Origin: a virus
Lineage: Duplodnaviria > Caudoviricetes
Direction: 5' to 3' (one strand)
Virus record (IMG/VR): IMGVR_UViG_3300048043_000009
Coordinates: 1 to 40,538 of that record
DNA: 40,538 nt
In this document: piece after piece, positions 3,764 to 27,845 of the stretch
Layout: each line of letters opens with the position of its first letter
How positions within the stretch are numbered: the first letter of the stretch is position 1
Translations under genes and position numbers: made by a program
The notes under the pieces: generated by a model
Databases searched by the model: none
What the model was told of the DNA's origin: nothing
Seen by the model: only the letters and a program-made list of their open reading frames with translations

Positions 3764-4714
3764 TTATGAGTGCGTTGCGCGCAGGTTGAATATCCAAGCG
3801 TCGTTTAGAATCCTAGGCACTTGAGAGAACTTATAGGCACCAAGTTGCAGTCTACGTAATGGGTCAGTTGGCCCACCGGGCGGAGTGTAAATAAAGCTTG
3901 CTGTGGCCGAAGTTAATTCGATCATGGCATAAGCTTCCTGAGCGGTTACGAAGCAGTTATAAACTGTATTTCCGTTCAAAGATGCATTCAGAGTTGTAGA
4001 ACCTTTAGAGCTGTAAAGCCATCTAACGTTCGATACAGAACCCCATTCAGCATTCAATACGTTCATATTGCTAGGATATTGTGCTTGTGAAATAAACCCA
4101 GTTACTGCTTCTAAATCGTCTAGAATACCTGTATTCATCATAGCCCAGAAAGCTTCACGAACTGGAGCTGTACCGAACTTCAAAGTACCTTCGATATTAT
4201 CACTAATCATCATCGCATCATTACCTAACAATGCAAGAATAACAGCATCAATATCAGATCTACTTAATTCAGTTGGATTATCGCCGTTAACTCCACCAAC
4301 GCAATTAATAACAGAAGCTGTAGATGCAAGCATGTTTCTCAACAGTTCATCTTCGGTTTCTCTCATTGATTGAGCTAATAAGGAAACAGTTTGATTTAAT
4401 ACTGGATCTTGATTCAAAAACATAACCTGATCGGTTATTGTTACGTAAGTTCCATAAAAATCTAGTCTCGCGTCGATGTCGACAGCGGATAAAACTTGCC
4501 CTGGGGGTGTCAATCCAGAATCTGGAAGTGGCACTGTAGCGGTCGCAAGGTTTGTATACCTGCGATAACGAGCAATCCGACCTGAGTTAGAAGGAAGCTC
4601 TTTTTTCATAGCCATCTGCTTGTGGATCAGCTTAGGCATAGGGCGAGATAACAAAACGTTATCGAACCACTGTTGCACTGGCTGAGGTAAAGCGTTGGTT
4701 CCGGTAATAGTCAT
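3764..4714 (-). CDS. Major capsid protein (N4-gp56 family)
   Basis: LLSRPMPKLIH, RYRRYTNL, YGTYVTITDQV, EWGSVSNVRW, DPLRR motifs; 316 aa; follows scaffold. Confidence 0.9.
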   Translation of the reverse strand: MTITGTNALPQPVQQWFDNVLLSRPMPKLIHKQMAMKKELPSNSGRIARYRRYTNLATATVPLPDSGLTPPGQVLSAVDIDARLDFYGTYVTITDQVMFLNQDPVLNQTVSLLAQSMRETEDELLRNMLASTASVINCVGGVNGDNPTELSRSDIDAVILALLGNDAMMISDNIEGTLKFGTAPVREAFWAMMNTGILDDLEAVTGFISQAQYPSNMNVLNAEWGSVSNVRWLYSSKGSTTLNASLNGNTVYNCFVTAQEAYAMIELTSATASFIYTPPGGPTDPLRRLQLGAYKFSQVPRILNDAWIFNLRATHS

Positions 4715-4726
4715 TTAATTTCTCTT

Positions 4727-5410
4727 TTAAGCACCTCTAGCATACTTCTGTGACTCTGCCCAAACATCTGCCTTAGACATATTAGAGAACTTATCCGCTT
4801 GACCTTTGAGTGAACTAGAAGCAGCATTAGCGCTAAGGGGCCTAGAAGTGTTTTTTAAGATCTTCTCGGCTTTAGGACTTGTTTCTTTCTTCATAATTCC
4901 CTCCTCATAGTCATCGGACATTTTTCCTAATCTATAAGCTGTCTCAGCTGGATTCTTTGAGTTCTGTATCTTGTGTGCTAAAGCTGGATCGTTTTTAATA
5001 AGAGGCAGTGCGTAGTTTTCTAGAACATAGTCGTAGTCTTCATGCTTCGCCCTCATGCGTGCCTCGTCTGTGGCTACGGCTTGAGTTTGACTGTATTCCT
5101 GCATCATTCGCTTAGCCGCTTCCATAGCTTTCTTTTCAGCCATCTTCTCGGCCATTTTGCGCGCTTGGAATACAGTTACTGCATCATTAGGGTCTAGATC
5201 GTCGAACTCATCCCTCTCTTCAACTGGGGCTTTAACCTGGTTGTTTTGATGGAGTTGTTCTAGCTCCTGGATACGCTTCTTTTGCATTTCCATGACTTGA
5301 TTGGCGTAATGCCAATTCTTATCAGCTTCTTTAGGTGCAGCCTCTTTGGGCTGTTCCATAACTTCTTGTTCTAGAACTTCTTCCTGGATCTCTTGTGTTT
5401 CTTCTGTCAT
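4727..5410 (-). CDS. Capsid scaffolding protein
   Basis: Acidic, coiled-coil-like, immediately upstream of MCP. Confidence 0.75.
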   Translation of the reverse strand: MTEETQEIQEEVLEQEVMEQPKEAAPKEADKNWHYANQVMEMQKKRIQELEQLHQNNQVKAPVEERDEFDDLDPNDAVTVFQARKMAEKMAEKKAMEAAKRMMQEYSQTQAVATDEARMRAKHEDYDYVLENYALPLIKNDPALAHKIQNSKNPAETAYRLGKMSDDYEEGIMKKETSPKAEKILKNTSRPLSANAASSSLKGQADKFSNMSKADVWAESQKYARGA

Positions 5411-5476
5411 ATACTCCGTTTATAGCCCATAGGTTGGCTTCACCATGTTTATAGTCCGTGTGCCGACTTCGCAAAC

Positions 5477-5495
5477 CAAGTAAAGTATTTACTTG
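5477..5495. promoter_or_regulatory. Palindromic operator-like site AGTAAA-N3-TTTACT (copy 1)
   Basis: CAAGTAAA-GTA-TTTACTTG upstream of scaffold/MCP; core repeated at 6160 and 33360. Confidence 0.6.
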
Positions 5496-5515
5496 ATAGT
5501 CAAAGCAAATTTTTT

Positions 5516-5917
5516 TTATCTGAGAAGGCTATCATAATGATAGGTGATCCCAGATGCCTGAATGGACGCGATAGTTTCCGGAACAGGTTCGTTTGCTCCT
5601 CCTACTGCCCAAGTGGGCCAGTCTCCAGGCAAAGCCCATTCCAAAGTCAATTCGCCCTTCTTGTTATCCACGCCAAACAACATGCAAGAAAGTTGCATAT
5701 GAGGCTTAGTGGGTATTCCCTTGATAATCTTTATCTTTATTCGCCCTGAGTGGTCCGGATAAGGCTTTGCATGCACCAAGATATAATACTTATAATCCAA
5801 AGATTTGAGTTCATTTACGATCCCTTCAATATCCTTAGACATGAGTGTCTTAGTTATAGCTTGACGCGTTTCGCCGAGTTCTTGACCACTTGTGGCATAA
5901 GGTAAATCTAAAATCAT
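5516..5917 (-). CDS. Hypothetical protein
   Basis: 133 aa, coupled to the upstream gene by ATGA overlap. Confidence 0.75.
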   Translation of the reverse strand: MILDLPYATSGQELGETRQAITKTLMSKDIEGIVNELKSLDYKYYILVHAKPYPDHSGRIKIKIIKGIPTKPHMQLSCMLFGVDNKKGELTLEWALPGDWPTWAVGGANEPVPETIASIQASGITYHYDSLLR

Positions 5918-6141
5918 GCTACCTTGCTAAATTTGGATCTGTAGAGCTTCTTAGAATCTTCTTTGACAAACTTATTTTGATTCTCAAAATAACGATTACC
6001 ACGTTCATGATCATCTGGATATACACCACGAGGAGAAAACTTCTCGTTGTCGGAAATGTATCCTTTATCAAATGTGTGAGCACCCTCGTGCATTTGTGGC
6101 CCTTTATCTGGATCACCATGCACACCTTTTGCACCTTTCAT
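5914..6141 (-). CDS. Small basic hypothetical (possible virion core protein)
   Basis: GGAGG RBS, 75 aa, hydrophilic. Confidence 0.7.
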   Translation of the reverse strand: MKGAKGVHGDPDKGPQMHEGAHTFDKGYISDNEKFSPRGVYPDDHERGNRYFENQNKFVKEDSKKLYRSKFSKVA

Positions 6142-6267: not shown

Positions 6268-6358
6268 GCATCCTTAGCTCAAAAGTAGAGCGCATCTGGG
6301 CCGTTTATTCCAATTTTTGGTTTAGGTGAGGATGATGGTGCAAGTCCATCAGGATGCT
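6268..6358 (+). ncRNA. tRNA-like RNA with extended anticodon arm
   Basis: Acceptor GCATCCT/AGGATGC, D arm GCTC/GAGC, T arm GATGG-TGCAAGT-CCATC; anticodon arm is 10 bp (several G-U) with a 16-nt loop; no encoded CCA. Confidence 0.8.
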
Positions 6359-6432
6359 TTAGGGGAAGTGAACCAAAACAGCTTTTGCAAGTAGTTACTT
6401 GCCCCCTTGTTCTATTCCCTTGAAGGAATCTT

Positions 6433-7080
6433 ATGATTGTTGACTGTATATCTGACTTACACGGCTACTATCCAAAACTTGAAGGTGGGGATCTTCTGAT
6501 TGTGGCAGGGGATTTGACGGCTAGAGATCATGAATATGAATACAGAGAAGTTTACGAGTGGTTTTGGATGCAAAATTATGCAGGAATAGTCTTCATTGGT
6601 GGAAATCACGATAATAATATCGGGACAATAACTAAACAAGGACCTCAAAGCATTCAATATTTATGCGATTCAGGTACAGAATTCCTAGGACTGAAGATCT
6701 GGGGATCACCTTGGACTAAGACATTCAAAGGCATGAATCCGCATTGTAAAGCCTTCACTATGGAAGATGATTGCCAGATAGGAGAGAAATTCAAACTCAT
6801 TCCAGACGATACAGATATATTGATTACACACTCTCCCCCTTTGGGCATATTAGATGTTGTACAACGTTGGCCAGACATGAAAATGGAAAACTGCGGAAGT
6901 GGACATTTGCGTACTCATGTAGAAAGAATAAAACCTAAATTGCACGTATTTGGTCATATTCATGAAGGTTATGGCAAACTTCTCCTTAAACACCAAGGTC
7001 CCAATACATGGTGTGTGAATGCTAGCCATGTCAATGAGGTTTACGATCCCATAAATAAGCCTATAAGGATAATCTTATGA
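6433..7080 (+). CDS. Calcineurin-like metallophosphoesterase
   Basis: SDLHG, AGD, GNHD, THSPP, FGHIHE motifs. Confidence 0.93.
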   Translation: MIVDCISDLHGYYPKLEGGDLLIVAGDLTARDHEYEYREVYEWFWMQNYAGIVFIGGNHDNNIGTITKQGPQSIQYLCDSGTEFLGLKIWGSPWTKTFKGMNPHCKAFTMEDDCQIGEKFKLIPDDTDILITHSPPLGILDVVQRWPDMKMENCGSGHLRTHVERIKPKLHVFGHIHEGYGKLLLKHQGPNTWCVNASHVNEVYDPINKPIRIIL

Positions 7081-8045
7081 ATGAAGGTCTAGCTTACATA
7101 GGAAAAATCATATCTCTTGAAGATGTTCCAGATTCTGATTTTATCTCATGCGCTACGGTGGTTTGTGGAAAAGGTGGTAAGTGGAGGGGAGTAGTTAAAC
7201 GCGGAACTCTTTATGTTGGTGGTCGATGTAGGATTTATCTTCCAGACAGTCTTTTAGTTCCTTCTGAAGAATTTCTGTTCATGGATAAGCATAGGTATCG
7301 CGTGCGCATGTGTAAGTTTCGTGATTGCCCTTCCGAAGTACTCATAATGCCCATGAAGATAGAATACATTTCTTGCCCTGTAGGGGAAGATATTACTTCG
7401 TTAGAGGGTGTAAAAAAGTACTTCAAACAAATACCTTTAGATATGCAAGGTGAGATTTATGGAGAATTTCCTCAATTCATACCTAAAACGGATGAACCGA
7501 ATTATCAGACTGTGCCTGATGTTGTTGAAAGTCTGGTTGGCAAGCCTTATTACATCAGTCAGAAGATGGATGGCACGTCATCTACAGCATATAGATACAA
7601 GGGTCATTTTGGGGTGTGTTCGCGCAATTGGGAACTGAAACGTGATGAAAATAATGCATTATGGAAGATAGCTATAGATCATGATTTAGAGAATAAATTG
7701 CCCGAAGGTTATGCTATCCAATGGGAAACCTGTGGTCCTAAAATTCAAAGTAACATGGCTGGATTGAAGGAAATTGAAGGATTTGCGTTCAATATTTATG
7801 ATATAGAGAAACAAGAAAGGCTGTATTTTAGTGATTTTAACGATTTCACAGATAAACTTATGTTTCCTATATGTAGGATTTCAGGCATGGGAGAGGCGTT
7901 TAATGAAGAAATGATGCATATGCATGCCGAGAGACTTACATATGATAATGGACAACCTCATGAGGGTGTAGTTGTGCGCAGTCAAGATCTTATCAATGGA
8001 CAACACATAAGTTTCAAGTGCATAAACCTTAACTACGAGAATTGA
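7077..8045 (+). CDS. ATP-dependent RNA ligase, DRB0094-like
   Basis: Motif I KMDGTS, GVCSRN, WETCGPKIQSN, FNIYD, EGVVVR, SFKCIN; N-terminal OB/tRNA-binding-like module (LAYIGKI...LPDSLL). Confidence 0.9.
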   Translation: MNEGLAYIGKIISLEDVPDSDFISCATVVCGKGGKWRGVVKRGTLYVGGRCRIYLPDSLLVPSEEFLFMDKHRYRVRMCKFRDCPSEVLIMPMKIEYISCPVGEDITSLEGVKKYFKQIPLDMQGEIYGEFPQFIPKTDEPNYQTVPDVVESLVGKPYYISQKMDGTSSTAYRYKGHFGVCSRNWELKRDENNALWKIAIDHDLENKLPEGYAIQWETCGPKIQSNMAGLKEIEGFAFNIYDIEKQERLYFSDFNDFTDKLMFPICRISGMGEAFNEEMMHMHAERLTYDNGQPHEGVVVRSQDLINGQHISFKCINLNYEN

Positions 8046-8046
8046 T

Positions 8047-8265
8047 ATGCCATGTAGATGTTGTGGAGCAGAAGGGCCAGCAAAGGGATTTAAAACAAAT
8101 GAATCACAAGATCCTGCGGATGTGCTAATAAATCATCATTTGGCTTTATCTGCGTATCTTGTAAAAAAACAATATCAAGAACCTCTATACGATCAAGAAG
8201 CATGGTTTAAAGAATGGGAAAAAGCATTTTCACATCATTTGAGAGGTTGCGATGAGAGGTCTTGA
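8047..8265 (+). CDS. Small Cys-containing hypothetical
   Basis: CRCC N-terminus; tightly packed in operon. Confidence 0.65.
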   Translation: MPCRCCGAEGPAKGFKTNESQDPADVLINHHLALSAYLVKKQYQEPLYDQEAWFKEWEKAFSHHLRGCDERS

Positions 8266-8578
8266 ATGGTTCAAAACATCAGATAAACTTCCACCGTATG
8301 ATCTTAAAGTACTTGGATGGATTGCCTGTGAAGCATGCCGTAAGAAAGAAAACCATGCTCATCCAGCGGTTTGGCATGAATGGTCGCAATGTGATTTTTA
8401 TCCTGTCACCCTTAAAGAATTTAGTTGGGAAAACATGAGTTGGGAAAAATCCGAAACAGGGATATGTTTCAAGCCAAAAGAACCTATAGAGGTTAAGAAA
8501 GACAATTGGCGACCTTATCCAAGTCCATCCTATTGGGCGTATATTAATCCACCTAATTTTGAGCAAGATGATGAATGA
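8252..8578 (+). CDS. DUF551-like hypothetical
   Basis: W-x4-D-K-L-P start and SYWAYINPP end resemble DUF551. Confidence 0.55.
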   Translation: MRGLEWFKTSDKLPPYDLKVLGWIACEACRKKENHAHPAVWHEWSQCDFYPVTLKEFSWENMSWEKSETGICFKPKEPIEVKKDNWRPYPSPSYWAYINPPNFEQDDE

Positions 8579-8774
8579 AAATACGGTAAATAACCCCTCA
8601 CACTATCAAGGAAAGTCCCTTGAGGTTATAGACGTTATATCAGATTTTAATTTGAATTTCTGTCTAGGCAATGCAGTAAAATATATTCTTCGTGCTGGAA
8701 AGAAACAAAACCGTGATGAAGATCTCAAGAAAGCTTTGTGGTATATTCAAAGGGAGATAGAAAATGGATTTTAA
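8559..8774 (+). CDS. DUF3310 family protein
   Basis: VNNPSHY, FCLGNAVKY, EDLKKALWY; true start probably 8568 or 8571. Confidence 0.88.
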   Translation: MSKMMNENTVNNPSHYQGKSLEVIDVISDFNLNFCLGNAVKYILRAGKKQNRDEDLKKALWYIQREIENGF

Positions 8775-8874
8775 TTTTAGACCTCCAAGTTGTCTTGCTA
8801 GAGCACAATGGGCACGTAATGAAGAATGTAAGATGCGATCAAAGCATTTAGAAAGGCTTGAAAACAAGGAATAG
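8764..8874 (+). CDS. 36-aa hypothetical
   Basis: ATG after GGGAG RBS (MDFNFRPPSC...). Confidence 0.4.
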   Translation: MDFNFRPPSCLARAQWARNEECKMRSKHLERLENKE

Positions 8875-8926
8875 GTTGAGAAAATACTAAAAGATGTTAA
8901 GGAAAGTCCCTTAAGGGAGATAGAAA

Positions 8927-9091
8927 ATGGAATGTAATTTTTGTGTCGTTCCTGGGTGCTCTGGAGTAGATTGTGAATTAAAAAAAGAGCAAAATGATAT
9001 TTCAGATGCATTCAATAAATATCTTCAGAATCTCCTAAAAGAAATACTTGATGAGTCTCCGATACGTTTGAGACAGACAAGAAATTTTTGA
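8927..9091 (+). CDS. 54-aa Cys-rich hypothetical
   Basis: Same RBS/start context as 8764; MECNFCVVPGC... Confidence 0.5.
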   Translation: MECNFCVVPGCSGVDCELKKEQNDISDAFNKYLQNLLKEILDESPIRLRQTRNF

Positions 9092-9136
9092 ATGATACAT
9101 AACAGCTATTATCAGACGTAGTAAATCAAGGACATC

Positions 9137-9754
9137 ATGATCATTTTTGACTTAGATGGAACTTTAGCTAATTGTGATCATCGCAGACATTTTGTCGATG
9201 CATCTTATAGAACTGATTGCTATTACCATTTTCCTGCTACTCTCTCTCAAAGCGAGGGATGGTTTTACAAGGATCGTATTTTAATGTGCGAACCACCAAA
9301 AGCAATAAAATTTATCCCTGACTGGAAAGCATTCAACGAGGCGTGCGATAAAGATGAGCCCATCCAACCCGTAATGGATATGTTTTGTCGATTGCTGGCG
9401 GAACAGCAACAGGATATAGAGGTGTGGTCTGGAAGGTGCCAATCTGTAGAAGATAAGACAGTAAATTGGTTGAGATATCATTTAGATGATTATTTTGGTA
9501 GAGATGCTTATATTAAATGGAAATACAATATAAAGATGCGTCCCATAGGCGATTCAACTCCAGACGATCAACTTAAAGAGCGTTGGTTAAACGAACGATG
9601 TTCAGATCTTATTGAAGCTATAATAAATGATCTTCCTCATGCAGTGAAACATGATGTCGAATTTGTATTTGATGATCGCCCGAAAGTGATCCGCATGTGG
9701 AGACGTAGAGGTATATTTGTGTTCAACTGTTGTAAGCATGATAGAGAGTTTTAA
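9137..9754 (+). CDS. HAD phosphatase, polynucleotide kinase 3'-phosphatase-like (no kinase domain)
   Basis: FDLDGTLA, WSGR, MRPIGD, FDDRPKV motifs as in the T4 Pnkp phosphatase module. Confidence 0.88.
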   Translation: MIIFDLDGTLANCDHRRHFVDASYRTDCYYHFPATLSQSEGWFYKDRILMCEPPKAIKFIPDWKAFNEACDKDEPIQPVMDMFCRLLAEQQQDIEVWSGRCQSVEDKTVNWLRYHLDDYFGRDAYIKWKYNIKMRPIGDSTPDDQLKERWLNERCSDLIEAIINDLPHAVKHDVEFVFDDRPKVIRMWRRRGIFVFNCCKHDREF

Positions 9755-9755
9755 C

Positions 9756-9923
9756 ATGAAATCGGAAGAAAAATGTGTTTTAGTTCTAGAAGAAATTATA
9801 AAATTACTAGAAAAGCTTTCACCCCAAGAAAGACTGTGGATATTAGAGATTCATGTTCCGCAATATATTTGTTTAACTTGCGGAGATAATATTACTGATT
9901 GCCAGCATGATGAGGAATTTTAA
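9756..9923 (+). CDS. Small Zn-finger-like hypothetical
   Basis: MKSEEK start, CLTC...CQH. Confidence 0.6.
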   Translation: MKSEEKCVLVLEEIIKLLEKLSPQERLWILEIHVPQYICLTCGDNITDCQHDEEF

Positions 9924-9925
9924 TT

Positions 9926-10183
9926 ATGGATTGCCCAGATTGCGGATATGGTCTTTATTGCAGTGACTGCTGGAATGCAATGCAAGTATGTTTTCCCTCA
10001 AAAAATGAAATTTACACCGGACTAGGCATAACCATAACTGAAAATGAGTGTGAGTTAAGTGTGGATAAGGAATGGATCAAGAGTTTGCTTATGGAATTTA
10101 ATTCACATCAATTTCCTATAACGATTGGAATGGGTAAAATTGATAATTTTCTTGAAAAATCAAAAATATGGAATGAAAAATGA
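9926..10183 (+). CDS. Zn-finger-like hypothetical
   Basis: CPDC...CSDC; GAGGA RBS. Confidence 0.65.
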   Translation: MDCPDCGYGLYCSDCWNAMQVCFPSKNEIYTGLGITITENECELSVDKEWIKSLLMEFNSHQFPITIGMGKIDNFLEKSKIWNEK

Positions 10184-10431
10184 AAACTTTAGACGAGTGC
10201 GCAAAATTTTCGCATATTTTAACGATAGAAATATCAAAAATCATAGAAAAAATGACAAAGGAAAGTTTTGAAAGTAAAGAAATTTCAAAACTTGAGTTGT
10301 CAGCCCTAATGTATGGTGTTTTCTATCCAGTTATAGCATGTGCAGTCGCAGGTGGAATAGGAAAAAAGGAGTTGGGTATGATATGTGAACAAATAATTAA
10401 GACATCTTATCCTAAAGATAGCCAGGAATAA
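10180..10431 (+). CDS. Hypothetical protein
   Basis: ATGA overlap with upstream gene. Confidence 0.65.
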   Translation: MKTLDECAKFSHILTIEISKIIEKMTKESFESKEISKLELSALMYGVFYPVIACAVAGGIGKKELGMICEQIIKTSYPKDSQE

Positions 10432-10644: not shown

Positions 10645-12684
10645 CTAACTACCCCCTACGCGCTTGGCAGCAGATTCCGATTTAACTTCATCTTCTTGCA
10701 TTAACTCTTTCTGCTTCAATTGCATATCCAATACGCTATGTATAAGGCCATGAAGGTGATTAGTCTGCATAGATTCGACCTCCTTGAGGGCACGAGCGTT
10801 ATCCAAAGCACCAGATGCCATATCATGTATAGCCTTGCCTTCATGCCATTTTGCAAGAGACATATCTGCAACTGCTCGAGTTTTCTTCTCATAAGCTGAC
10901 GCCATCTCATTTTCTGCTCTAGCGGTTTGCATTTGAGCTTCCGCCTGCATTTTCTGCATCTCAGATTGCATTTGCATTTGCTGCATTTGACCTTGTTGTT
11001 GCTGCATCTTATCCATTTCTTCGATAATGGTTTTCTTATCTTGTAAGTTAGATCTTTCCACGATGTAACGATTGGAAATGGGAACACCCATCTGTTTGAT
11101 TTGTAGGGCTTGTAAGAATTGGAATTGACGCTGTGTAGAAGTAAGCTCACCTTCGTCTACAACACAGTTAAATTTACTAAATAATGTATCAAAGAAACGA
11201 TCAGTAGGCTTTTTGCCAATGATACGAGCAACATGACCTTCACTCCAGTTGTTGACTATTAGATCATCCATTATAGTCGAAACAGCCATTTGAGACACGT
11301 TTAACTTGTCAAAGACACCACGAAGTCCTGTTAGGCCTTGTCCCATTTTGATTTTCATCAAGATGGAAGTCATTTCTTTAGATTTTATGTCATTTCCGAA
11401 TAGTTCTTCAGGACCGACAATGTCCATGATCTCTTTTTCGATATTGGCAATCAATTCTTCCCAACCAGGAGCAACCATAGGAGGATTAATAGGCACTACA
11501 TCAGTCGCTAGATTGGCGTTCTGCTTGAAGTATAGGATTTTACCAGGGCCTTGAAAGAAAGCGTCTTCTGGGTTAACTAATGCATCTTCCTTGACCATTA
11601 GCCCGCTCTGGATCTGAGCATCTAGGATGTCTAGTTGCCTATTACGTCTTCTATTAAGTTCTATTTGAGACGATCTGATATTTCTGGGGATACCCATATA
11701 GCGGTACGCGTAGTTTTGAACCTCTGGAAAATGGTAACACATGAATGGGACAAAAGGAAATTTGTCTAGCCCGTAGGGGCGTTTTTCTTCATACATGTGA
11801 TTGTTATTTACGAGAACATGGAGTTTGACTGAAGGCTTTTGAGCGGTAATAAGTTCAAGATTTGGATTATATCTAGCTAACATCTTGAATTGTTCAGCAT
11901 TGCCTTTCCACTCAACAACTTCGCCTGTGAATTTATCTAGAATCTTTCGGACTTTACGCCAATCGCGCACCCAATATTCATCATAGGCATACATTTCTAT
12001 ATTATATTGCGTCCAGTTTTCGGGCATAAACTGGAATTTACCATCCTTGGAGACATATCCCTTGCCTAAATAGGGAAGATCTTTCTTTAGATCAGGGAAT
12101 AGGGCTAGAAGTTGTCGTCTATTGACATACTTGCGAGTCCATATACGGGTGCAATCGGATAAGTCCTGTTGGGTCCAATAATTGTCCATAACGAACGACG
12201 AATACGGAAGGCGTGTTGTGCGTATGGCAGGATTTTCGGGATCTTCACGCGGATCAAGCCAAATAGACATAAGCTCCAGACCAGAAGTGATACCACCTTC
12301 AAAGCAATCTGAGATCTTTTCATAAGTTCCATCTTGTCTTTTTGCCCAACTAAGAGCAGTTGTGCGTTGTTGCGCTGTTTCTCCCATATCAGGATCATTA
12401 TCAGCTGCTTCCAAGGTTGAAGCAAGTCGATGATCCCTTTGGAAACCGGAGATCATATTACGCACACGAAGGATTTTATTGAACTGAAGTTGCTGTTGCT
12501 GCCTGTAGAAGTTGTTAGACCACATGTAGTTAGCTGCTTGCTGATCACCTGCGGTCATGCGTGTGTCAATATCAGCTTCTACCCAAAACTGTTGAACCAG
12601 AGACTGGGTTTCTCTCCAAAAATCATCAAGTTCCTGTGCAATAGGATTAGCTGCTGGCCATGTAGACGTCATGTGTTGCCTCAT
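10645..12684 (-). CDS. Portal protein (P22-like)
   Basis: LQFNKILRVRNMISG, KFPFVPF, GIPRNIRSSQIELNRRR; Q/M-rich C-terminal helical barrel; downstream of TerL. Confidence 0.88.
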   Translation of the reverse strand: MRQHMTSTWPAANPIAQELDDFWRETQSLVQQFWVEADIDTRMTAGDQQAANYMWSNNFYRQQQQLQFNKILRVRNMISGFQRDHRLASTLEAADNDPDMGETAQQRTTALSWAKRQDGTYEKISDCFEGGITSGLELMSIWLDPREDPENPAIRTTRLPYSSFVMDNYWTQQDLSDCTRIWTRKYVNRRQLLALFPDLKKDLPYLGKGYVSKDGKFQFMPENWTQYNIEMYAYDEYWVRDWRKVRKILDKFTGEVVEWKGNAEQFKMLARYNPNLELITAQKPSVKLHVLVNNNHMYEEKRPYGLDKFPFVPFMCYHFPEVQNYAYRYMGIPRNIRSSQIELNRRRNRQLDILDAQIQSGLMVKEDALVNPEDAFFQGPGKILYFKQNANLATDVVPINPPMVAPGWEELIANIEKEIMDIVGPEELFGNDIKSKEMTSILMKIKMGQGLTGLRGVFDKLNVSQMAVSTIMDDLIVNNWSEGHVARIIGKKPTDRFFDTLFSKFNCVVDEGELTSTQRQFQFLQALQIKQMGVPISNRYIVERSNLQDKKTIIEEMDKMQQQQGQMQQMQMQSEMQKMQAEAQMQTARAENEMASAYEKKTRAVADMSLAKWHEGKAIHDMASGALDNARALKEVESMQTNHLHGLIHSVLDMQLKQKELMQEDEVKSESAAKRVGGS

Positions 12685-19452: not shown

Positions 19453-20184
19453 ATGAACGCGAACACAAAGATTTTGGTTGAAAAAGACCATTCTAAATTT
19501 AAGATTTTTAGCGAAAACAGACCGGTGACTTATGCCCACGTTATGAAAATTTGCGACAATGAAAGCTTTCCGCTAAAATACATGTTAAACCCTATAATCG
19601 TTAATGAGAATATGTATGTAATCGATGGACAGCACAGGCTACAGGCATTGACAATGCTAAATCTCCCTGTGTATTATGTAATCCAAGAAGGCGGGGATTG
19701 TATGTCAATAATCAATTATCAGACGTCAAAAAAATGGACAGTTGAAGATTTTATTAGATTTTATGCACGTAGGGGATTGCGAGATTTCAATTATTTATTA
19801 GAATACAGAGAGCGTTATGAGATATCACTTTTCACGGCAGCCACATTGGTAAGATGCTTTTGTGAAGTTAAGGGAAAATCTAAAAGCTCCATTTTTCGCG
19901 AAGGGATTCTAGATATCACACACAAAGACAAGCTGGAAGATTTTTCGTATCTTTACATACCAGTTGTCAAGAAAATCCAAACGGATATGAAACCTAAAAA
20001 AATACCTCAGCCATTTCATGAGTCTTATATTAGAGCTGCCGTTGAGATATACTATCAAGACAGGGCGCGTTTAAAGATACTGATGGACAAGCTACCAAAC
20101 TATTGCACGTCAATACCTAACACCAGCAAAGAAAATGAAGCACGAGAGAATTTTGAAATAATCATAGCTAGAAGGGCACGATAA
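19453..20184 (+). CDS. ParB/Srx-like N-terminal domain protein
   Basis: NRPV, NPIIVN, IDGQHRLQA. Confidence 0.8.
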   Translation: MNANTKILVEKDHSKFKIFSENRPVTYAHVMKICDNESFPLKYMLNPIIVNENMYVIDGQHRLQALTMLNLPVYYVIQEGGDCMSIINYQTSKKWTVEDFIRFYARRGLRDFNYLLEYRERYEISLFTAATLVRCFCEVKGKSKSSIFREGILDITHKDKLEDFSYLYIPVVKKIQTDMKPKKIPQPFHESYIRAAVEIYYQDRARLKILMDKLPNYCTSIPNTSKENEARENFEIIIARRAR

Positions 20185-27566: not shown

Positions 27567-27705
27567 TATGTGTTGGCTGAGTCTGGCCAAAGGCAATCGT
27601 GCGCTAACAAGCGTTTAATGTTTACACGATGTTCCTAGGGATAAAAAAGAGAAGGTAAACACTTCCTAATCCCGGGAACCGCACGTTCGAATCGTGCACA
27701 CATAT
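27567..27705 (+). ncRNA. Oversized tRNA-like RNA (139 nt)
   Basis: Acceptor TATGTGT/ACACATA, class-II-type D arm, T arm GCACG-TTCGAAT-CGTGC; anticodon stem ATCGTG/CACGAT with 23-nt loop; about 50-nt variable arm. Confidence 0.8.
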
Positions 27706-27755
27706 TTCTGATGCTCTCTCGTTTAGTTCAAAGTGCAACGGGGGAGTGTCATTTT

Positions 27756-27826
27756 GGTCATTTCATCTATTGGTAAGATATGCACATCCTAAAGGCATAA
27801 ATGGGGTTCGATTCCCTGGGTGGCCG
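27756..27826 (+). tRNA. Degenerate tRNA, nominal anticodon CCT (Arg)
   Basis: Acceptor GGTCATT/GGTGGCC (3 G-U), D arm ATCT/AGAT, T loop TTCGATT; two mismatches at the loop end of the anticodon stem. Confidence 0.6.
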
Positions 27827-27845
27827 TTGCCCTCAGTTGTTTGTT

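Follow-up and report, generated by a model that had tools for sequence, protein, structure and literature searches.

A predicted RNA-repair block with an Rnl5-type ligase and a tRNA-shaped RNA in a small uncultured phage

Introduction

The virus record IMGVR_UViG_3300048043_000009 (Duplodnaviria; Caudoviricetes) represents an uncultured phage, and all of its 40,538 bases were analysed here as the window. Beside its head genes, and on the strand opposite to them, lies a plus-strand block (6268–10431) in which a tRNA-shaped RNA is followed by a metallophosphoesterase, an RNA ligase, three to four small genes, and a HAD phosphatase. Do these parts form one machine, in which the RNA is the dedicated partner of the enzymes, or have they merely been collected in the same place? 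An earlier note on this DNA had described the block as a heal-and-seal anti-defence operon that carries its own RNA partner, and as a candidate for an undescribed system. The parts named there are real, as judged from the RNA fold, the tRNA finder ARAGORN, and family profiles. The block is probably a reduced and relocated copy of an RNA-repair-plus-tRNA island (Rnl5, RtcB, phosphoesterase, and tRNAs) that is common in this phage group. Because related phages shuffle the same parts freely, the parts are likely a loose kit that protects translation and not a fixed RNA–enzyme machine. New here are an Rnl5 clade of small phages that comes without a kinase and has a changed ATP site, and the statistical company that this clade keeps with anticodon-less tRNAs.

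Results

The RNA ligase

The start of the ligase gene is overlapped by the end of the phosphoesterase gene by 4 nt. The ligase has 1010 relatives at E ≤ 0.001. Its match to the OB-domain family PF21189 lies below the cut-off of that family, and the TIGR02306 equivalog model gives 75.9 bits against a cut-off of 151.15. The predicted structure, with a predicted local distance difference test score of 90.7, matches NgrRnl (PDB 5COT) over the whole chain with a template modelling score of 0.79. Together with the PF21189 match, this gives an OB plus nucleotidyltransferase architecture with no C-terminal appendage. The best family (PF09414) and the best structures (NgrRnl) place the ligase outside the Rnl1 family; the Rnl1 profile PF09511 is uninformative here, since it matched nothing anywhere, the controls included.

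The catalytic residues were compared with those of NgrRnl, of which Lys170, Glu227, Glu312, and Lys326 are essential, and Asp53, Lys121, and Asp172 were considered as well. Residues K163, D165, E217, E296, K314, and D57 are invariant in all 50 aligned members, and position 114 is always lysine or arginine. Asn142 replaces Arg149 of NgrRnl in 50/50 sequences, and no equivalent of Arg4 is kept (Gly4 in 41/50). In NgrRnl, Arg149 and Arg4 contact the gamma-phosphate of ATP, in part from the OB domain; the contacts are described as not strictly essential, and R149A retains 15% activity (PMC7261155). Because both arginine equivalents are lost in the aligned members, the ligase belongs to a distinct Rnl5 clade with an altered ATP site. 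The clade shares with DraRnl (DR_B0094) and NgrRnl the domain plan, the catalytic lysine, the aspartate, two glutamates, and the motif V lysine. It differs from them in the two arginine positions, in its sub-threshold TIGR02306 score, and in its neighbours, which are RtcB, phosphoesterase, and tRNA genes and not DR_B0095.

The OB domain had been likened to tRNA-binding modules. The ligase model does match beta chains of phenylalanyl-tRNA synthetase (PheRS) weakly (E ~5e-4), but this domain is the defining part of Rnl5 enzymes and is known to engage ATP (PMC7261155). Rnl5 enzymes seal nicks in duplexes (PMC4408790), and their natural RNA substrates are described as unknown (PMC4408790, PMC5397189).

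Predicted end-healing enzymes

The phosphoesterase, whose nearest match is MPPED2, retains the motifs DxH, GD, GNH, H, and GHxH (D8, H10, D27, N58, H59, H133, H175, and H177). This complete binuclear set with the GNH histidine is shared with MPPED2, Rv0805, and CthPnkp. In addition, H59 and R31, the latter four residues after the second aspartate, have the spacing of His264 and Arg237 of CthPnkp, where the histidine binds phosphate (PMC2190708). The enzyme is predicted to be a 2',3'-cyclic phosphodiesterase and monoesterase, and its sequence suggests that it may act on RNA ends; such activity is known for CthPnkp and not for the MPPED2-like family to which the window enzyme belongs. The protein also matches the PADLOC candidate defence gene PDC-S10, a model that may be catching a phage accessory gene.

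The stand-alone HAD phosphatase matches T4 Pnkp by profile (E 1e-11), in addition to its PF25109 match, and qualifies as a 3'-phosphatase domain. The earlier note had counted it as part of the module, which its distribution does not bear out: it lies within 3 kb of the ligase in only 3 of 62 loci, and occurs in 3/29 genomes with the ligase and 0/36 without (p=0.08; samples defined below).

The lack of a 5' kinase had been correctly noted, and the chemistry would accordingly differ from that of T4. The kinase profile PF13671 passed its cut-off in 0 of 50 ligase-bearing records, one of them a partial copy of the window phage, with two weak matches, and in 14/14 controls; because of this, the lack of a T4-type kinase is general among such records. 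A Walker A scan of the window open reading frames (ORFs) of at least 60 aa found the motif only in the helicase, and neither a kinase nor RtcB was found in the window genome.

The tRNA-shaped RNA

The RNA folds into a cloverleaf with identical minimum-free-energy and centroid structures (−32.5 kcal/mol, z −3.19), and none of 200 shuffled sequences was as stable. The acceptor (7/7), D (4/4), and T (5/5) stems are fully paired, and the elbow includes an A15:U48 Levitt pair, so that the 7-bp acceptor, the D and T arms, and the elbow pairs agree with canonical tRNAs. The D loop lacks G18G19 and the T loop carries G55, a variant of the A18/G55 type. The stem of the enlarged anticodon arm is rich in G-U pairs, and the canonical arm with a 5-bp stem and a 7-nt loop (Y32, U33, R37) is not formed. 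The 3' end carries U73 and no encoded CCA. ARAGORN misses the RNA when introns are disallowed; with a 19-nt insert allowed, the RNA passes the default score and is the sole such match in the window, with none in 50 shuffled windows. No Rfam model, RF00005 and YrlA included, matched anywhere in the window, and the only close sequence relatives found were identical copies of the window phage.

A deletion test asked for any single excision that yields a canonical anticodon arm. The test recognised 83 of 115 normal tRNAs and found no solution for the window RNA, whereas 26% of shuffled arms gave one. None of the class I long-arm RNAs of the phage group described below passed, while the outside controls L148, L155, L372, and L373 did. 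We infer that the window RNA does not decode, because no single deletion restores a canonical anticodon arm, and excision of an intron was rejected on the same grounds.

We also considered the RNA as a leader switch. Pairing between its arm and 10 nt of the downstream hairpin is possible, but costs ~20 kcal/mol when it is forced, access to the ribosome-binding site is hardly altered by trimming the RNA, and the pairing does not exceed that of shuffles (p 0.75 in the window; p < 0.05 in 2/32 RNAs). The switch was rejected on all three counts.

Two more tRNA-like genes (27567–27705 and 27755–27827, plus strand; the last one weak) are located ~20 kb away, directly behind RecT-YqaJ. The order there is a class II-type body with an 86-nt middle, a hairpin, a degenerate Arg(CCU)-like gene, and a terminator-like hairpin.

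Long-arm RNAs in other phages

A pattern that combines a class I D arm with a long middle and G55 in the T loop was searched for in viral contigs, which yielded 22 loci, 21 of them distinct. In 15 of the 21, one of which is an identical copy of the window phage, the acceptor and T stems are in register, although the pattern does not demand this. The D-loop GG is absent from 14 of these 15 matches and present in all six off-register ones; the joint change of D loop and T loop is not decay. G55 without the D-loop GG is also found in five normal-length viral tRNAs, and because they share it, the A18/G55 variant marks a working elbow and not a special family.

The core of 20 aligned long-arm RNAs is 98.2% paired, a figure inflated by their selection for having the stems. 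Both sides have changed in 10 of 17 pairs, including pair 15:48, which alternates between GC (14 RNAs) and AU (4), and the covariation score is 0.71 as opposed to at most 0.16 in slid controls. The tRNA elbow is thus under selection, in line with its retention having been remarked on in the earlier note. The arms at the anticodon position are unrelated, with no common sequence or length, and only 11 of 27 are more stable than their shuffles at z < −2; nor are the acceptor ends and discriminators constant. The detector missed RNA1 and RNA2 of phage T5, rnaC of phage T4, L116 and L337 (found by ARAGORN), and a second RNA of L135 (found by a covariance model), so that all counts of long-arm RNAs are lower bounds.

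Long-arm tRNA-like RNAs are a known class. T5 RNA1 and RNA2 (AY543070) are annotated as 'tRNA-like stable RNA with unknown functions' and T4 rnaC (NC_000866) as a stable RNA, and their predicted folds have the same plan of a tRNA body with an enlarged anticodon-position arm. Compared by fold plan, they are longer than the window RNA and have an extra hairpin at the variable position; they lie in tRNA clusters, with no adjoining ligase in the stretches read. The Y RNA YrlA sits in an RNA-repair operon with RtcB. Encoded beside Ro60/Rsr, and also by phages, it is described as a tRNA mimic that keeps the D and T arms and is handled by tRNA enzymes (PMC4201824). The window RNA differs from it in that its ends close an acceptor stem as in tRNA, and a TROVE (Ro60) gene was present in 0 of 5 genomes tested, with matches in 2 controls.

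Several long-arm RNAs have features of their own. A basal helix with a bulged G is conserved in L104:10282-10386, L109:11922-12030, L118:13075-13178, L119, L125, L135:9586-9685, and L249:581-708, and in L249 both sides of one pair have changed. The base of the anticodon arm in L092:19638-19722, L149:7519-7603 (minus strand), and L184:2474-2556 has a 3-nt bulge and tandem G-A pairs, which we take to resemble a kink-turn. In two large phages, the anticodon loop of a tRNA gene (L148:5378-5498, plus strand; L155:9950-10071, minus strand) holds a 48-nt insert, similar in both, with a T-loop-like hairpin. The insert belongs to no Rfam family; its removal leaves a canonical arm, Lys-UUU in one reading, and it is a candidate compact intron. 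In the adjacent tRNA genes L142:5438-5564 and 5576-5703, related inserts of ~55 nt separate the D arm from a near-canonical anticodon arm. The class II-type bodies L149:7762-7840 and L161:2604-2699 (both minus strand) have shortened or odd anticodon loops and adjoin long-arm RNAs; such arrays seem to combine several ways of disabling the anticodon.

Association of the RNA with the ligase

Co-occurrence was counted in 29 other near-complete genomes with the ligase and 36 without it, chosen by their capsid protein. The genomes are mostly 90–100% complete (G028, G059, and G099 84–89%, G112 56%), and the sample excludes the window and two genomes found through the RNA pattern. The long-arm RNA is present in 10/29 ligase genomes and 2/36 of the others (p=0.004); among the 36, the same two long matches were recovered by a covariance model whose training set included some of the positives. 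The phosphoesterase (22/29 vs 12/36, p=0.001) and RtcB (9/29 vs 2/36, p=0.009; one is a fragment) are enriched, as is any tRNA-like gene (19/29 vs 12/36, p=0.013), whereas normal tRNAs on their own are not (12/29 vs 10/36, p=0.30). Across the group, Rnl5 genes cluster with those for the phosphoesterase and RtcB and with tRNA genes, which agrees with the heal-and-seal part of the earlier proposal.

The proposal of a dedicated RNA partner fares worse. Relatives that keep the enzymes without the RNA had been named as evidence against it, and they form the majority, since the long-arm RNA is absent from 19 of the 29 ligase genomes. Furthermore, the complete genomes G040, G041, G043, G103, and G109 have the RNA and no ligase. 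The records with a G55 long-arm RNA contain a PF09414 ligase in 2 of 15 cases (1 of 4 complete records) and RtcB in 2 of 14 tested. The RNA is located within 3 kb of the ligase in the window and in 6 of the 10 other ligase genomes that have it (G048, G063, G066, G069, G073, and G078). A fair reading is that the ligase travels with tRNA-type genes, perhaps more with odd ones, and that neither needs the other.

Gene neighbourhood

We gathered 61 other ligase loci, 62 with the window, many of them truncated and with at least five near-duplicate pairs. Within 3 kb of the ligase, the 62 loci contain the phosphoesterase in 33 cases, terminase in 22, a normal tRNA in 20, RtcB in 19, a long-arm RNA in 12, and DUF3310 in 11. 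Gene order around the ligase varies freely, and the order RNA–phosphoesterase–ligase was found in none of the 61 other loci. A conserved, anticodon-aberrant RNA upstream of the ligase, for which the earlier note had suggested looking in relatives, is not seen: only 1 of the 61 loci (L135) has a long-arm RNA in the 800 nt upstream of the ligase or phosphoesterase. This locus consists of two long-arm RNAs, whose arms are unrelated, followed by a zinc-ribbon gene, the ligase, and the phosphoesterase. Many long-arm RNAs are placed within tRNA arrays. The RNA-repair island itself is more often found directly upstream of terminase than at the portal.

The site of the block is an insertion hotspot. 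In 24 close relatives with both flanks, the interval from the portal gene to the 75-aa gene measures 0.27–7.1 kb and contains a tRNA-like gene in 7 genomes, the phosphoesterase in 4, and the ligase in none.

Layout of the block and other features of the genome

The genome encodes a P22-like portal, an N4-gp56-type capsid protein, terminase, a primase-helicase, and RecT-YqaJ (Table 1). The capsid protein is less than 30% identical to those of deposited phages, and there is no close isolate. Host assignment failed: four genome-bin matches carry unrelated labels, and the cluster members give no host either. The block had been placed between the portal and scaffold genes; the minus-strand portal is indeed one flank, while at the other the small conserved 133-aa and 75-aa genes separate it from the scaffold-position gene, and three small ORFs behind the HAD gene extend it to 10431. 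Its G+C content is 37%, as opposed to 42–44% in the head genes.

Table 1. Features of the block and its surroundings in the window.
Feature	Position	Strand	Evidence
tRNA-shaped RNA, anticodon arm replaced by 11-bp stem and 14-nt loop	6268..6358	+	Fold, ARAGORN, shuffles, covariation in relatives
Predicted hairpin between RNA and first ribosome-binding site	6362..6419	+	Folding; switch behaviour looked for, none found
Binuclear metallophosphoesterase, MPPED2-like	6433..7080	+	PF00149 E 1.8e-10; MPPED2 E 3e-26; PDC-S10 E 3e-59
Rnl5-type ATP-dependent RNA ligase, OB + nucleotidyltransferase	7077..8045	+	PF09414 E 1.9e-19; PF21189 E 1e-4; model
72-aa ORF, no family; relatives directly behind ligase in L112, L113, L119	8047..8265	+	
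108-aa ORF, DUF551-like by language-model features (lead only)	8252..8578	+	
DUF3310 protein, likely start 8571; within 3 kb of ligase in 11/62 loci	8559..8774	+	
54-aa ORF, no family	8927..9091	+	
Stand-alone HAD phosphatase, T4 Pnkp phosphatase type, DxDGT intact, without kinase domain	9137..9754	+	PF25109 E 6e-19
Three small ORFs, no family, closing the plus-strand block	9756..10431	+	
P22-like portal gene (flank)	10645..12684	-	
Head genes, other flank: 75-aa and 133-aa conserved genes, scaffold-position gene, N4-gp56-type major capsid protein	3764..6141	-	
Second tRNA-shaped RNA, class II-type D arm, 86-nt middle, unlinked to ligase	27567..27705	+	

A scan for sigma-70-like promoters gave 18 sites where 16.9 were expected, none of them in front of the tRNA-shaped RNA, and the term operon is therefore based on gene spacing only. 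A 17-nt motif upstream of the RNA recurs in two other loci only, neither time before a tRNA. Inside the block, an 18-nt direct repeat (~8751–8768 and 8913–8930) covers a ribosome-binding site and start codon and is possibly a trace of small-gene shuffling. Elsewhere in the window, a ParB/GmrSD-N-like protein is encoded at 19453–20184 on the plus strand, the minority strand; it is another possible conflict gene. In the relatives L049, L052-L057, L063, L072, and L079-L090, the major capsid gene is split by inserts of a few hundred to ~1500 bases, probably introns or inteins.

Discussion

Proposed function of the block

The reading that we favour, at about even confidence, is that of an RNA-repair island with a decoy RNA: the enzymes would mend RNA cut by host defences, and the RNA would be a stable decoy and not a dedicated partner of the ligase. 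Granted the island, the decoy role itself falls somewhat short of even. RNase P, a 3' nuclease, and the CCA enzyme would mature the RNA from the head of the transcript, since what is retained is the 7-bp acceptor stem with the T arm and the elbow, whereas the anticodon arm drifts. The matured RNA could persist as a body held by elbow- or acceptor-binding enzymes and unusable by the ribosome, a decoy for host enzymes that recognise tRNA. The phosphoesterase would open 2',3'-cyclic phosphates, and either it or the HAD phosphatase would remove the remaining phosphate to leave a 3'-OH, after which the ligase would seal 3'-OH/5'-phosphate nicks in paired RNA. Because its genome has neither a kinase nor RtcB, the window phage alone could complete repair only on breaks that already have a 5' phosphate; breaks with a 5'-OH would depend on a kinase or RtcB from the host. 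In relatives with both ligases, RtcB would handle the 5'-OH breaks and Rnl5 the 5'-phosphate ones.

The system is thus not an undescribed one, as had been suggested, but a variant of known phage RNA repair: for jumbo phages, sets of ligases, RtcB, phosphoesterases, HAD phosphatases, and tRNAs have been described as counter-defence (PMC7824862). Like those sets and T4 Pnkp-Rnl1, the block combines a ligase with 3'-end-healing enzymes beside tRNA genes, with a HAD phosphatase like that of T4 Pnkp; it differs in having Rnl5 instead of Rnl1, no 5' kinase, an MPPED2-like phosphoesterase, and a 40-kb genome around it.

Several points weigh against this reading. Repair of anticodon loops is not a documented job of Rnl5, because these enzymes seal duplex nicks and breaks in loops are assigned to Rnl1 and Rnl4 in PMC4408790, and the knockout phenotype reported for DraRnl is in DNA repair (PMC5397189). 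The phosphoesterase may have another job, because 12 of the 36 ligase-free genomes encode it and it matches PDC-S10. As a decoy for nucleases that recognise the anticodon, an RNA with no anticodon loop is ill suited. When descent is taken into account on a portal tree (65 genomes), the RNA–ligase link is not significant: of 8 independent pairs, 3.4 go in the same direction and 0.2 in the opposite one (median p 0.25), and with the window removed the figures are 2.3 and 0.3 (7 pairs, p 0.5). Normal tRNAs show at least as strong a link to the ligase on the tree (4.2 against 0.7); for any tRNA-like gene the median p is 0.06. Expression of the RNA, the activities of the enzymes, and protection from defence are all predictions from sequence.

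Alternative explanations

The alternative that survives best, although we consider it unlikely, is that the RNA has no defence role. It would then either mark the transcript head for processing or stability, or be a passenger that drifts in a hotspot rich in tRNA genes. RNase P needs little beyond an acceptor stem, T arm, and elbow, which are the parts kept in the RNA, and the variable contents of the portal interval and the many long-arm RNAs within tRNA arrays would fit a passenger. However, normal tRNAs would punctuate a transcript equally well, and two sub-families hold specific arm features across phages, which suggests that the arm matters at least there.

More doubtful is the dedicated partner, in which the long paired arm would be substrate, splint, or scaffold for the ligase, for example as a bait that is nicked by a host nuclease and resealed. 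The enrichment in ligase genomes, the proximity of the RNA to the ligase where both occur, and the compact L135 locus speak for it, and a paired arm would suit a nick-sealing enzyme with an OB domain weakly like PheRS beta and a changed ATP site. Against this stand the many genomes that have either component without the other, the unrelated arms of which fewer than half beat shuffles, and the lack of significance on the tree. What survives of the partner idea is a genome-level enrichment that is not significant after tree correction. In a bolder form, to which we give slightly less credence, a phage-specific Rnl5 clade with a remodelled ATP site would work with anticodon-less mimics whose arm is nicked by host tRNA nucleases and resealed by the ligase and phosphoesterase, a renewable bait and kinase-free counter-defence.

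It is improbable that the ligase serves phage DNA metabolism by sealing RNA-patched nicks, with unrelated accessory genes as neighbours. In its favour, DraRnl can use DNA on the 5'-phosphate side, its knockout is defective in DNA repair with delayed genome reassembly (PMC5397189), and DUF3310 and DUF551-like genes interrupt the block. Against it, RtcB is found no more than 3 kb from Rnl5 in 19 of the 62 loci, and tRNA genes in 20.

The remaining two explanations concern the RNA. That it is a pre-tRNA with a 19-nt intron (Gly-GCC or Thr-GGU), spliced by the block enzymes, is highly improbable: ARAGORN calls it with such an insert, and G1:C72, C2:G71, U73, and GCC at 34–36 look Gly-like, but the deletion test failed for it and for every class I long-arm RNA of the group, and no endonuclease or kinase was recognised. 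Phage tRNA introns are reported, as are odd tRNA inserts in Lak phages (PMC6784885). Least probable of all is that the RNA is aminoacylated, possibly with glycine, and serves as an amino acid donor outside the ribosome, as staphylococcal non-proteogenic tRNA-Gly does, with which it shares the UGC T-loop triplet (PMC7826273). The RNA also has a U51-A63 pair. However, G55 without the D-loop GG is also found in normal-length tRNAs, the acceptor ends and discriminators of long-arm RNAs vary, and no transferase was recognised in the block.

Significance

A literature search that covered few subscription papers found nothing that links Rnl5 to anticodon-less tRNAs or describes an RNA-based bait as counter-defence. 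One compact 3.5-kb block holds both an Rnl5 ligase and a tRNA-like RNA. From the kinase-free set, and from the co-occurrence of Rnl5 and RtcB in relatives, the two ligases would be expected to divide the work according to break chemistry. If true, the renewable bait would be an RNA-based counter-defence and would provide a first function for the 'tRNA-like stable RNAs' of T4 and T5.

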